Source: Eledone cirrhosa (lineage: Eukaryota). From it: a stretch of 64,000 bases of DNA. How positions within the stretch are numbered: the first letter of the stretch is position 1; each line of letters opens with the position of its first letter. This document shows, one piece after another, positions 30,195 through 57,932 of this stretch. The stretch is from contig OZ024747.1 in assembly GCA_964016885.1 (NCBI GenBank), positions 84,382,001 to 84,446,000 of the forward strand, in the 5' to 3' direction. Both the position numbers and the translations under genes were made by a program. The notes below the pieces were generated by a model. It was not told where the DNA came from and did not search any database. It saw only the letters and a program-made list of their open reading frames with translations.

Positions 30195-30261
30195 TTTTAT
30201 CTGATGAAAACACAAATATTATTGCTTGATGATGTTTGTTTTTGAAATGCGCATAATAAAA
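30195..30261 (+). ncRNA. Minimal type I hammerhead ribozyme (family A)
   Basis: ttttat-CTGATGA-aaacacaaa...tttgttttt-GAAA-TGCGCA-TA-ataaaa. Stem I is ttttat/ataaaa, stem III is the palindrome ATGCGCAT, and the cleavage triplet is AUA. Confidence 0.75.
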
Positions 30262-30619
30262 TATATGGAACTCCTTTAACCATCTTTTGATCTTATATTA
30301 TATATGTATATATGTATATATGTATATATGTATATATATATATATATGTATATATATATATATATATATATATATATATATATATATATATATGTGTGTA
30401 CATATATATATATGTATATATATATATATATATATATATATGTATATGTATATATATATATGTATCTATATATATATATATATGTATATATATGTAGGAG
30501 GTGAGTTTTATTGTAGTACAATAAAGCAATGCAGATATCGGATAAGAAGCACTCTACAGTTTGTGGGACTGGAGTATGCATAATATAAGATCAAAAGATG
30601 GTTAAAGGAGTTCAATATA

Positions 30620-30686
30620 TTTTATTATGCGCATTTCAAAAACAAACATCATCAAACAATAATATTTGTGTTTTCATCAGATAAAA
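30620..30686 (-). ncRNA. Hammerhead ribozyme (family A, inverted copy)
   Basis: Exact reverse complement of 30817-30883. Confidence 0.75.
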
Positions 30687-30816
30687 CAGGAGAACATGAT
30701 ATGAAGGCTAAAAAAACACTTGTTGATAGTGCAGTTTTAAATCAACATATGGATATGTTGATTTAAAACTGCACTATCAACAAGTGTTTTTTTAGCCTTC
30801 ATATCATGTTCTCCTG

Positions 30817-30883
30817 TTTTATCTGATGAAAACACAAATATTATTGTTTGATGATGTTTGTTTTTGAAATGCGCATAATAAAA
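30817..30883 (+). ncRNA. Hammerhead ribozyme (family A)
   Basis: Same core as 30195-30261. Confidence 0.75.
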
Positions 30884-30922
30884 TATATTGAACTCCTTTA
30901 ACCATCTTTTGATCTTATATTA

Positions 30923-31702
30923 TATGTATATATATATAGATACATATATATATACATATACATATATATATATATGTATATATATATATATGTATATATA
31001 TATATATGTATATATATATGTATATATATGTATATATATATATATATGTATATATATATATATGTATATATATATGTATATATATGTATATATATATATA
31101 TATGTATATATATATATATGTATATATATATATATGTATATATATATATATATGTATATATATATATATATGTATATATATATATATGTATATATATATA
31201 TATATGTATATATATATATATGTATATATATATATATGTATATATATATATATATGTATATATATATATATATATGTATATATATATATATGTATATATA
31301 TATATGTATATATATATATATGTATATATGTATATGTATATATATATATATGTATATATATGTATATATATATATATATGTATATATATATATATGTATA
31401 TATATATGTATGTATATATATATGTATATATATATATATGTATATATATATATATGTATATATATATATGTATATATATATATATATGTATATATATATA
31501 TATGTATATATATATATGTATATATATATATATGTATATATATATATATATATATATGTATATATATATATATATATATGTATATATATATATATATATA
31601 TGTATATATATATATATATATGTATATATATATATATATATATATGTTATATATATATATGTATATATATATATATATATGTATATATATATATATATGT
31701 AT
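30923..31702. repeat. (TA/TG) microsatellite
   Basis: Directly visible. Confidence 0.95.
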
Positions 31703-31861
31703 ATTGGAATAAATGCTCTGAAATAGCGATATATATGTGAATATAGACATAGAATATTCGAAAATATTCTGTATGTTTATAATAAACATTTTGAAGACCT
31801 AATCGCTATAGAATAGAATACGTCACGTATTACAATTAGATTCTCGATAAAAGCAAGGGAA

Positions 31862-53936: not shown

Positions 53937-54671
53937 TAAACGGAAAAAATGAAACGATATTTCAGTTCCCACTCTTAGTACGGCTGTTACTTAAATATAA
54001 GTATGTACACGTACATACATATATGTATACCGACGTACAGTAGTATGTATATATATATATATACATACATGCACACATATATATATGCACGTATGGATTC
54101 ACCTAACATTTATTATAATGCTCGGTGTGTTTGTAAACAAACATCCCGTATTAAGCCGTAGTGTCTAGCAACCACCGTTGCTCGTTTGTTCAACACTGAC
54201 AAAGGAACGCTGTACTAGTTTCAAGCTTGTTAGCTATCGTCAGCAACGTATACCTTCCTGCCAGATTGTTGAACGTATATACTTACCTTATGCATATTAA
54301 CGGCTGAGTAGCCCAATTTGCATATCGAGTGGGTTAATCGGCCGGGTGCACCGAAAACGATAAACGGAAAAAATGAAACGATATTTCATTTCCCACTCTT
54401 AGTACGGCTGTTACTTAAATATAAGTATGTACACGTACATACATATATGTATACCGACGTACAGTAGTTGAACAAACGAGCAACGGTGGTTGCTAGACAC
54501 TACGGCTTAATACGGGATGTTTGTTTACAAACACACCGAGCATTATAATAAATGTTCGGTGAATCCATACGTGCATATATATATGTGTGCATGTATGTAT
54601 ATATATATATATATACATACTACTGTACGTCGGTATACATATATGTATGTACGTGTACATACTTATATTTA
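53937..54671 (-). mobile_element. 424-bp hammerhead-bearing unit, about 1.25 tandem copies plus inverted partial copy (retrozyme/PLE-derived)
   Basis: taaacggaaaaaatgaaacgatatttca occurs at 53937 and 54361 (period 424). Positions 54467-54671 are the reverse complement of 53992-54194. Confidence 0.8.
54207..54249 (-). ncRNA. Minimal type I hammerhead ribozyme (family D)
   Basis: Minus strand reads acgttg-CTGACGA-t.agct.aaca.agct.t-GAAA-CTAG-TA-cagcgt. Stem III is the palindrome ACTAGT and the cleavage triplet is GUA. Confidence 0.85.
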
Positions 54672-54699
54672 TGTATATATATATATGTATATATATAAT

Positions 54700-54781
54700 A
54701 ATATATAGTAAGAAACACAGTAAACCGTGTGTCTAAAATTACAATTTTAGACACACGGTTTACTGTTTCTTACTATATATT
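54700..54781. repeat. Near-perfect palindrome with arms of about 40 bp
   Basis: aatatatagtaagaaac(ac)agtaaaccgtgtgtctaaaatt-ac-aattttagacacacggtttactgtttcttactatatatt. Confidence 0.9.
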
Positions 54782-54854
54782 GTTAATCGGCTCAGTATTT
54801 ATTTGTACTTTATACTTAGAGCTTAATGGTTACAGGGTTCTAATTCATATATAT

Positions 54855-57506
54855 ATCATCATCATCATCATCAGGTTTAGCGTCCGTGTTCCACGCTTGC
54901 ATGAGTTTGGACGGGGGTTTTCCCACTTGAGGCAAGAGTGGTTGTCTTGCTCGCATAGGACTGTCTGGCGGGTTTTCTACAGTTGGATGCCCTTCCTAAC
55001 ACCAACCACATTTACAGTGTGGGGCTGGGAGGTTTTTACCGTGTTGCCTACACGGCCACATTACAGCGTGGACTGTCTGGCGGGTTTTCTACAGCTGGAT
55101 GCCTTTCCTAACACCAACCACATTTACAGTGTGGGGCTGGGAGGTTTTTACCGTGTTGCCTACACGGCCACATTTACAGCGTGGACTGTGTGTTTTTTGT
55201 CGTGACACCTACACGATCTCATTTGTTTCGGCCTGGATGTTGTGGGACCAACATAACTTTACATTGAAAGGGGCGGTGTGGGTGGGGTGGAGGTGGTGGG
55301 ACGGGGGTGTGTTTTGATAGAGATGCCTACTGACTGTAGTAGGTTTTTACTTTGTATTTAGGTAAGGCGGGTCTTCTCTATTACTGAGTACCGCCAAAGG
55401 TCTCGGTCCAGTGACATTGTCTTGGAGAGGTGTAAGCGTGTGAGGTCGGAATTTATCAGCTCGTCCCATGTTTTTCTGGGTCTGCCTACTCCGTGGCTAC
55501 CGTCTATCTTTATTGCCCTGCACTTTGTTATACAGCTGTCGTCTTTCATGCGCATCACGTGACCGTACCAACGTAGCCTTCTCTCGAGTAAACAACATCT
55601 GATCCCTCTTATTTCTAATTTTTTCCTTAGTTCGTTTATGCTTTGCCGTTCACGTATATTACTATTGCACATCCAGTGGAGCATGCAAGCTTCGTTCCTC
55701 TCTAGTCTGCGTATATCCTCTGCACACAATGCCCAGGTCTCACTGCCATGCAGCATTGCTGTTCGTATGCAGGCATCGTATAACCTGCCTTTCATTTTTA
55801 GGGAGAACCCTCTAGCGGCTAATAGTGGTATAAGCTCTCTGAACTTTTTCCATCCAGTTCTGACTCTAGCTACTGTACTTTCAGAGCACCCTCCCCCACT
55901 GCTGATTTTGTCACCCAGGTAACGGAAGCTGTCCACTATTTCTATAGAACCCTCTGCGCAGTTGAAGGAGCTAGTATTTTGTGGGCACTTGCTGCTACTT
56001 ATTGCACCAGAGCACCGGCCACATGTAAAATCTATGTTCTTAGTTAGCTTACCTGTGATCCCACTACATCTTTTATGCACCCATACTTTGCATTTGGGAC
56101 ATAAAATGGAGTTTCTACCTACGCCTTTCCTACACACTGAGCATGGCCATTTCCCAGATGGGACTGCCGCCATGTTTTCTTTCCTACAAACTAGAACTTT
56201 TGTCTTAGCCAGGTTAATTTTAAGGCCTTTTGATTCTAGGCCGTGCTTCCATGTTTGGAATTTCTTCTCTAGTTCGGTCATTGATTCAGCTATGAGCGTT
56301 AGATCATCTACGTATAGGAGTTCCCATGGGCAGCCGGTCTTGAACTCCTCTGTTATAGCCTGAAGGGCAATAATAAATAGTAGGGGGCTAAGAACAGAGC
56401 CCTGATGGACACCAACTTTTACGCTAAACTCTTCACTATATTCGTTGTTAATTCTAACCTTACTGACTGTTTCTTTATACATGGCTTGTATAGCTCTCAC
56501 AAGCCATTCGTCAACACCTAGTTTTCTAAGAGACCACCAGATAATGGAACGGGGGACTCTGTCGAAGGCTTTCTCCAAGTCGACGAAAGCTAAGTATAGG
56601 GGTTTACTTTTAGCTAGGTACTTCTCCTGTAGTTGTCGTACAATGAAAAGAGCGTCTGTGGTACTTTTGCCTGACACAAACCCGAACTGCATTTCATCTA
56701 GATCAATTCTCTCTCTGATTAGTTGCGCTATTACTTTTTCCTTGACCTTCATGACCTGGTCGATTAATTTAATGCCTCTATAGTTACTCCTATCTAGGGC
56801 ATCTCCTTTTCCCTTATAGCAGTTAACGATGATGCTGCTACGCCAGTCCTTCGAAACAACCCCATTCTGTACGACTTGGTTAACTATCCGGGTGACCATG
56901 GTGTGTCCCACCGAACCAGATGCCTTCAGCATCTCAGCAACTATTTCCGAAGGACCAGCCGCCTTACCCGTCTTCATATCTTTGATTGCCTTGCTTATTG
57001 TACTACCCTGGACTAACACTGCTGGTCCCTCTATTGGGTCGATGTGGGGGAGACTGTCTTTCTCCCATTTGTTCTCCTCATTTAGAAGCCTTTCGTAGTG
57101 ACACTTCCAAGCTACCTTCTTATCAGCGTCGGTGATGGCAAGTATGCCATCATCGTTAAGCACACACTTCTCCCCGACAATATCACGGTTTTCCTTGACA
57201 CATTGCCTGGCAATCCTGAACACCTCACGTTTTTGGTCCTCACGTTGTAGAACATGCTTGAACTTTCTTTCCTCTGCTTCCCTTCTTGCGAAGTACACTT
57301 GTCTCCTAGCTTCCCTCCTGGCTACCTGATAGTCTTCTCTACTTCCCCCATCCCGCCATGCTTTCCAAGCCTGCTTTTTGGCCTTAATTGACTCCTCCAC
57401 CTTACTGTTCCACCACCATGTTACTCTCCTCCTACCTACAGGCCTGCTCCAGCCACAGACTTCGTCTGCCGCCGTCAGCAGGTTTGCTCTCAGGAATTCC
57501 CACTGT
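54855..57506 (-). mobile_element. 5'-truncated RTE-X LINE (RT + PHD-like finger; open frame 55358-57400)
   Basis: [34 protein letters not shown] and ELLYVDD, followed by CSVC..CPKC..VHKRC..CGRC and LRWYGHVMR. The 3' UTR has two repeats of about 113 bp and a (GAT)n tail. No endonuclease is retained. Confidence 0.92.
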
Positions 57507-57877
57507 TATATGTTATATGTATATATATATGTATATATATGTATATATATATATATGTGTATATATATGTATATATATATATATGTATATATATATATAT
57601 ATGTATATATATATGTATATATATATGTATATATATGTATATATATATGTATATATATATATATATATATATGTATATATATATGTATATATATATATAT
57701 ATGTATATATATATATATATATGTATATAGATTTTGAGTTTATGTTGGTTGTATACCAACACCTCAGTATGCAGGCTGGAGCACTCGACGAAGTGCGCAG
57801 GTTGGTTTGGTTACTCCGGAGTAGTGTAAAATAAAGTTAAATAAAAGTCAAATGATTAAAATTTAGCTTCGTTTATT

Positions 57878-57932
57878 ACTGCTATATATATTTCAGTGAC
57901 AGCCATCTTTGGCTGTGACCTCTTCAGGCAGT
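57878..57932 (-). ncRNA. Minimal type I hammerhead ribozyme (family E)
   Basis: Minus strand reads actgc-CTGAAGA-ggtc.acagcca.aaga.tggctgt.cact-GAAA-TATATA-TA-gcagt-aataaa. Stem I is a perfect 5-bp helix and stem III is the palindrome ATATATAT. Confidence 0.85.

Follow-up and report, generated by a model that had tools for sequence, protein, structure and literature searches.

The stretch of the Eledone cirrhosa genome analysed here (64,000 nt, hereafter the window; assembly GCA_964016885.1, contig OZ024747.1, positions 84,382,001 to 84,446,000 of the forward strand) is 27% GC, rich in (TA)n, and carries eleven hammerhead ribozyme sites that belong to seven families, each with its own palindrome at helix III. 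Six of these families are terminal-repeat hammerheads of Penelope-like elements (PLEs), and one, family 2, is a tandem retrozyme. We give a probability of about 0.8 to the reading that all seven are minimal type I hammerheads whose palindromes would serve the double-hammerhead fold already known for this class. The elements, their abundance and the conservation of self-complementarity at the family level are established. A first-pass annotation of this DNA had reported the seven palindromes; all eleven sites are where it placed them and read as it gave them, and each palindrome marks a genome-wide family (pattern counts against reversed controls, below). Its assignment of the motifs to the minimal type I PLE and retrozyme hammerheads is likewise borne out by the fit to a type I descriptor, by adjoining PLE open reading frames (ORFs) and by 310-nt tandem units.

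The motifs have type I topology with a short helix I and a helix II, and helix III is 1-2 bp with a palindromic loop. Helix I is 4-8 bp in six families and in family 3 consists of 2 bp, an internal loop and then further pairs. When scored with a type I descriptor in which palindromicity does not count, the core box (CUGANGA or its covariant U3-A8 form, GAAA, and UH) is intact at nine of the eleven window sites. The core-box variation reported earlier is real, but it is variation at the free consensus position N7 and occurs inside families as well as between them. At the family 4 site, earlier called degenerate, a U3-A8 core (TTGAAAA in the family's genomic copies) has been damaged, and the family 3 site is, as had been said, partial: it runs from GAAA onward only, the core of the family being TTGAGAA, and most of the 30 genomic relatives of family 3 that were examined have the full motif with a U3-A8 core, which is a published variant (the relevant section of PMC4209133). 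Because it is without the catalytic box, the family 3 window copy is predicted to be inactive. Most of the window copies are truncated and inserted in (TA)n tracts, and two copies no longer have the core. Table 1 gives their positions; inverted and partial-tandem arrangements such as those listed are part of known PLE structure, as described in a section of PMC8557442, and the two plus-strand copies of family 1, 622 nt apart, could possibly form a cis pair on one transcript.

Table 1. Hammerhead motifs and the element pieces that contain them (window coordinates)
Feature	Position	Strand	Remarks
Family 1 hammerhead, ATGCGCAT	30193-30263	+	Helix I TTTTAT/ATAAAA, linker TGCGCA; in PLE terminal-repeat fragment ~29940-30300
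Family 1 hammerhead, inverted copy, ATGCGCAT	30618-30688	-	
Family 1 hammerhead, second plus-strand copy, ATGCGCAT	30815-30885	+	
Family 2, non-LTR retrozyme of three tandem 310-nt units	31705-32670	-	Palindrome ACGCGT, linker CGCG
Family 2 hammerheads, one per unit	31862-31904, 32172-32214, 32482-32524	-	
Family 3 remnant, a back-to-back pair of 5'-truncated PLE end pieces	40237-40545	.	Junction 40307/40308
Family 3 motif remnant, ACGTACGT	40290-40307	-	Left: GAAA, CGTACG, UA and the helix I 3' strand only
Family 4 hammerhead, ACCGGT	49092-49128	+	Damaged core, linker CCGG; PLE end piece 49056-49270
Family 5 hammerhead, ATGATCAT	52169-52226	+	Linker TGATCA; end piece ~51900-52420
Family 6 hammerhead, ACTAGT	54207-54249	-	Linker CTAG; 424-nt partial tandem plus inverted copy, ~53940-54690
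Family 7 hammerhead, ATATATAT	57878-57932	-	Linker TATATA; PLE end piece 57724-58049

Links between motifs and ORFs rest on adjacency, as follows: two family 1 motifs flank an 821-aa ORF in locus L333, the full element to which the window fragment is 92% identical; family 3 motifs flank a 927-aa ORF in L349, and intact copies lie ~300 nt past the end of a GIY-YIG-type ORF; in L330, to which the window end piece is 98% identical, a broken PLE ORF lies between two direct family 7 copies spaced 4.1 kb apart; the family 4 motif lies 1.0-1.4 kb downstream of an ORF with reverse transcriptase (RT) and GIY-YIG domains at three loci; and in L068, L294, L297 and L298 the family 6 motif is next to a PLE ORF or the 3' part of one. 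A terminal-repeat location was thus found at several loci for families 1, 3, 4, 6 and 7, and at one for family 5. Pfam matches were obtained only in the family 4 ORF (GIY-YIG, and RVT_1 at 28.6 bits, which is below the 29.6 cut-off); the family 1 and 3 ORFs gave no Pfam match, though YRDD and GIY-YIG-like motifs are present in them. Going by motif style, families 1, 3, 5, 6 and 7 may be labelled Poseidon-like and family 4 Neptune-like. The families had been called unrelated, and this is true of the DNA that surrounds the seven motifs (no pair better than E 0.03) but not for the proteins of families 1, 3, 5, 6 and 7, which form one PLE group with RT identities of 42-56%. An RT tree of 18 rows (midpoint root for drawing only) places family 7 as sister to a group made up of family 1 and clade S, the latter being the sister clade of family 1 that shares its helix I (support 95/92 and 100/98). 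Short pieces and near-duplicates are left out of this tree, as are family 2, which has no ORF, and family 4, which the query did not match. Two ORFs considered as parents were rejected on their grouping: that in L007, a candidate for family 5, belongs to the sister clade of family 1, and that in L237, a candidate for family 7, groups with family 6. A C-terminal GIY-YIG-like piece in the window (59143-59616, minus strand) shares 36-39% identity with the other families' endonucleases, gave no Pfam match, and represents a further PLE family; it was rejected as the parent of family 7, whose own element is that in L330.

Family 2 has a 310-nt unit of 34% GC with one type I hammerhead per unit and a longest ATG-initiated ORF of 30 aa, and it forms long arrays genome-wide. 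Retrozymes that lack long terminal repeats (non-LTR retrozymes) are defined, in the pertinent section of PMC7229834, by tandem units of 150-450 nt with one type I hammerhead each, GC below 50% and no ORF. Family 2 has each of these structural features (unit length, one hammerhead per unit, GC content, no ORF) and is a non-LTR retrozyme as so defined. It resembles the metazoan non-LTR retrozymes described in parts of Cervera and De la Pena 2020 (PMC7229834) and of Li, Clavereau and Pollet (bioRxiv 10.64898/2026.07.22.740005) in its tandem units, type I hammerhead, low GC and lack of an ORF, and the axolotl Amex1 motif described there in having a 1 bp helix III with a palindromic tetraloop; it differs from published retrozymes in being a new sequence family, known here as a DNA repeat only. 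Its parent PLE was not found among the loci examined. Retrozymes of this kind are also expressed as linear and circular monomer RNA; for family 2, no RNA run was listed as containing the unit, which speaks neither for nor against expression. The unit at 31705-32015 is nearly identical in four runs (X1-X4, run kind unrecorded) labelled as four organisms, with a closed 340-nt contig in three of them. Contigs from these runs close with the 310-nt unit, which would also be expected of a tandem DNA repeat, and the unit differences listed among them, only in loop II and at the base after A9, are too thin to weigh.

Copy numbers were obtained as genome-wide pattern matches in the 3.0 Gb genome, with the reversed pattern as control, since a DNA similarity search of the genome with family 1 returned no candidates. 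The clade that holds family 1 gave 72,593 matches (control 0), family 6 together with a second CTAG family 40,686 (7), family 2 18,804 (23), family 4 15,949 (0), family 7 6,491 (0), family 5 5,589 (0) and the 3' half of family 3 alone 756 (0), which sum to ~160,000. An unbiased sample of 119 evenly placed 10-kb stretches (1.19 Mb), in which palindromes were not scored, contained 126 matches to the first descriptor (5 in the reversed control) and 134 motifs by the revised descriptor (6 in the control). This is one motif per 9 kb, or by extrapolation ~320,000 in the genome. With families clustered after (TA)n masking, 5.1 families are expected per 64 kb, and the same filter gives 5 for the window; for five families in 28 kb, a span chosen post hoc, p is 0.07-0.10. 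The window is no hotspot, and its motif density is ordinary for this genome.

In that sample 70 of the 134 motifs are perfectly palindromic at helix III and 88 are self-complementary if G-U pairs are allowed, while the control contains no palindromes. Among 20 families (19 with at least 2 loci and, by manual addition, family 3), a perfect palindrome is present in 15 where 0.7 are expected, a G-U palindrome in one and neither in four; the loci behind 15/20 include some that were fetched by the motif pattern, and seven of the 15 families were picked by the finding itself. Retention within families was counted by eye with the linker left free, in the first 100 matches listed: the palindrome is kept in 81/100 for family 5, 97/100 for family 7, 88/100 for family 4, 37/40 for family 1 and 53/56 for family 6. 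The first-pass annotation had asked whether the palindrome is fixed in each family: it is mostly kept in the copies listed, but TATATA and TATGTA alternate, and TGTTCA replaces the family 5 palindrome in some copies (below). Taken together, the sequences indicate that self-complementarity of helix III is clearly under selection.

The clade with helix I TTTT(A/G)T gives these changes a traceable form. By eye, the first 100 of its 72,593 matches listed comprise 27 TATATA, 29 TATGTA, 37 TGCGCA, 2 TACGTA and 5 others. TACGTA is a lineage-level state, present in one lineage that is 74% like family 1 over 256 nt and in one within clade S (both placed by flanking DNA alone), and it recurs with helix II types of its own (four linkers together gave 932 matches). 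Forms such as TGCGTA are rare, with 446 matches to four linkers, and are spread over existing families. From these we infer a stepwise path among palindromes via G-U pairs, TATATA/TATGTA/TACGTA/TGCGCA, to which we assign no direction. The compensating changes reach loop positions too, so a hairpin in the monomer does not explain the series.

Folding predictions agree with pairing between copies. In the monomer the active fold is predicted to lie 3-10 kcal/mol above the free fold, and folding of the single strand without constraints scores weakly (z -0.4 to -2.7), the active fold not being seen in it. Homodimers are predicted to be favourable for six of the seven window families (-3 to -12 kcal/mol; family 5, +3.4), in a nested double-hammerhead fold in which helix I is swapped along with helix III. 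Since a single copy has only 1-2 bp in helix III, two copies would swap strands in helix III and helix I to cut the RNA, and the simplest partners would be the two terminal repeats, or the tandem units, of one transcript. Any sequence that pairs with its own copy must be palindromic, but which palindrome it is would be free to drift through G-U intermediates, so that incompatibility between families would arise as a side effect of their divergence, mostly via helix I, and not through a selected code. Palindromic short helices III and dimer cleavage of PLE hammerheads have been published (in portions of PMC4209133 and PMC6765202, and in the Fig. S8 legend of PMC3088659), and PMC4209133 in its relevant part also reports many hammerhead families per genome and dimer cutting that is weak.

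Several observations weigh against this interpretation. The energies are nearest-neighbour estimates that include neither tertiary contacts nor protein, and the hammerhead of a lizard PLE needed the element's protein in order to cut, and cutting was dispensable for insertion in vitro (part of PMC11167929). The PLE link of family 5 is a single locus, L021, where the motif precedes the start of a PLE ORF; another family 5 locus, which holds two direct copies 3.1 kb apart, gave no ORF match. A family with the non-palindromic GAAC/GGAC linkers is abundant (11 of the 119 stretches) and its homodimer is predicted to be unfavourable (+2.6), and TGTTCA is present in 11/100 family 5 copies among the matches listed. 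These two cases mean that perfect pairing is not required for amplification. The TGTTCA copies may be one family 5 sub-lineage, as suggested by a loop II variant that they share in the matches listed. GGAC in the GAAC/GGAC family (L071:3680, L071:4839, L067:9214 and others) could form tandem G-A pairs in a dimer; the parent element of that family was not found. Families with odd-length linkers (CCGCCGG, CCTCTGG and CCTTTGG, in L126, L128, L133, L065 and L110), which give 3 bp and a triloop, may cut as monomers.

The first-pass annotation had gone further and proposed a lock-and-key code, in which family-specific palindromes evolved to stop heterodimerisation of co-resident elements. Some results are as such a code would have them: the seven window families are predicted not to heterodimerise, helix III pairing in trans being orthogonal among them (homodimers -7.3 to -14.6, best heterodimer -5.4 kcal/mol), the palindromes are mostly fixed in families, and family 1, which shares helix I with clade S and differs only in its palindrome, has predicted heterodimers with it of +3.4 to -2.3 against -11.5 for its homodimer. 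That all seven window palindromes differ is correct; however, seven palindromes of these lengths would be distinct by chance with p = 0.75, and genome-wide they are common to several families (TATATA in 3/20 and CTAG in 2/20, or 4 pairs against 0.71 expected from random draws, p = 0.008 for the excess), partly by descent, as the two CTAG families are 70% identical over 78 nt. (In one array, G000:C1:5738324-5752446, the second CTAG retrozyme, which is weakly related to family 6, is present as 31 tandem 466-nt units.) Family 7 and clade S both carry TATATA at ~50% RT identity, TATATA being likely ancestral to both, and their copies lie 300-600 nt apart in L225/L226; a code requires that co-resident families differ, which is not so for these two. 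Three sub-lineages alternate between TATATA and TATGTA, the palindromes varying by changes that preserve wobble pairs and even by mismatches, and within clade S heterodimers of neighbouring forms are predicted to be as stable as homodimers (TATATA x TATGTA, -4.4 against -4.0 and -1.8), though TATATA x TACGTA heterodimers are poorer (+0.4 and -0.6). Helix I, moreover, is predicted to discriminate all 21 window pairs at least as strongly as the palindrome does, 14 failing at the first helix I pair whatever the palindrome and the other 7 costing +11 to +25 kcal/mol; the one pairing that the palindrome by itself would separate is that of family 1 with its sister clade. Tandem and terminal-repeat copies also supply a partner in cis. 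The earlier prediction that heterodimers do not form likely holds in the window, but it is over-determined by divergence. Were pairing confined to the loops, with helix I kept in cis, cross-reaction between family 7 and clade S would be predicted, which would also break the code. With palindromes shared, sister heterodimers predicted to be stable and helix I discriminating, the proposed code is not supported, and we regard it as very improbable. It is nearly as doubtful that family 1 moved from TATATA/TATGTA to TGCGCA in escaping its sisters (character displacement), which would themselves be a cross-activating network of ribozymes cutting in trans. No publication on palindrome-based family specificity turned up in a search that excluded Lunse et al. 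2017, which is the most relevant and may discuss it. That paper, by Lunse, Weinberg and Breaker, is reportedly, from its title, about hammerheads with a small palindromic helix III.

Cutting as monomers, helped by a PLE protein or a chaperone, with the palindrome mainly reflecting a hairpin of 1-2 bp and a 4-nt loop, would account for the four of 20 families with non-palindromic or odd-length linkers. Families 1, 3, 5 and 7 can form 2 bp and a tetraloop, which a section of PMC7229834 describes as typical of efficiently cutting invertebrate retrozymes, and the protein-dependent cutting of the lizard element points the same way. But the loop positions stay complementary and change in compensating steps, which such a hairpin does not explain, and the helix III hairpins are predicted to cost +2.4 to +6.0 kcal/mol, so we think monomer cutting unlikely. 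That the motifs are chance matches or microsatellite artefacts could be suspected from the (TA)n-filled, 27% GC sequence and from motifs such as ATATATAT that lie beside (TA)n; Rfam found no family at gathering score in the window, and an Rfam E-value scan had no hammerhead among the 150 matches listed, which were dominated by microsatellite matches to miRNA models. This explanation is refuted by the copy counts, thousands per family against controls near zero, and by the family 7 palindrome kept between fixed helices, and its probability is close to nil.

The remaining features of the window are a probable host gene and other repeats. A 310-aa open frame at 7824-8756 (minus strand) has a Cullin_binding domain (PF03556, E 5.5e-33) and is likely an exon of a DCN1-like gene. 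Three copies of one APE-RT long interspersed nuclear element (LINE) are at 37612-40134 (+), 40545-42628 (+) and 49555-51484 (-); the family 3 remnant lies between the first two, and a long open frame is kept in the first. Further LINEs with APE and RT domains lie at 22916-26632 (+), 55358-57505 (-) and 27623-28378 (+), and include a frame of 1,238 aa that has zinc fingers at its C terminus as well as a type in which a PHD-like finger follows the RT. A short interspersed repeat with a 112-nt internal duplication and a (TGA)n end is present at 28547-28860, 53080-53290 and 54860-55215.

The hammerheads of this window are close to the terminal-repeat (pLTR) hammerheads of PLEs described by Cervera and De la Pena 2014 (PMC4209133), the relevant sections of which report the same type I topology, conserved boxes, a short helix I and a helix II that is long and variable, a palindromic helix III/loop 3, many families in each genome, the U3-A8 variant, and single or inverted copies from truncated PLEs. 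Against those sections, both the genome and its families are new, the linkers are 4-10 nt long, the compensatory changes can be traced as a series, and the load is far higher, ~160,000 pattern matches (~320,000 by extrapolation) against ~9,000 in Xenopus. In the avocado sunblotch viroid and newt satellite RNA (parts of PMC4209133 and PMC6466107, citing Forster et al. 1988) two motifs likewise merge their helices III via a palindromic loop, a mechanism that is predicted here, in a genomic retroelement setting and from sequence alone. The families are new, and dimer pairing through palindromes was already known in this class; for these elements such pairing is likely and well supported by their sequences.

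A selected recognition code would matter more if it were true, but the genome-wide evidence points away from it. The genome does offer natural pairs in which the two recognition elements are separated, family 7 and clade S having the same palindrome and different helices I, and family 1 and clade S the same helix I and different palindromes. A genome with ~300,000 retroelement hammerheads, ~16,000 of them with a U3-A8 core, extends the known class, and its natural series of compensatory palindromes supports dimer pairing by the evidence of sequence alone.

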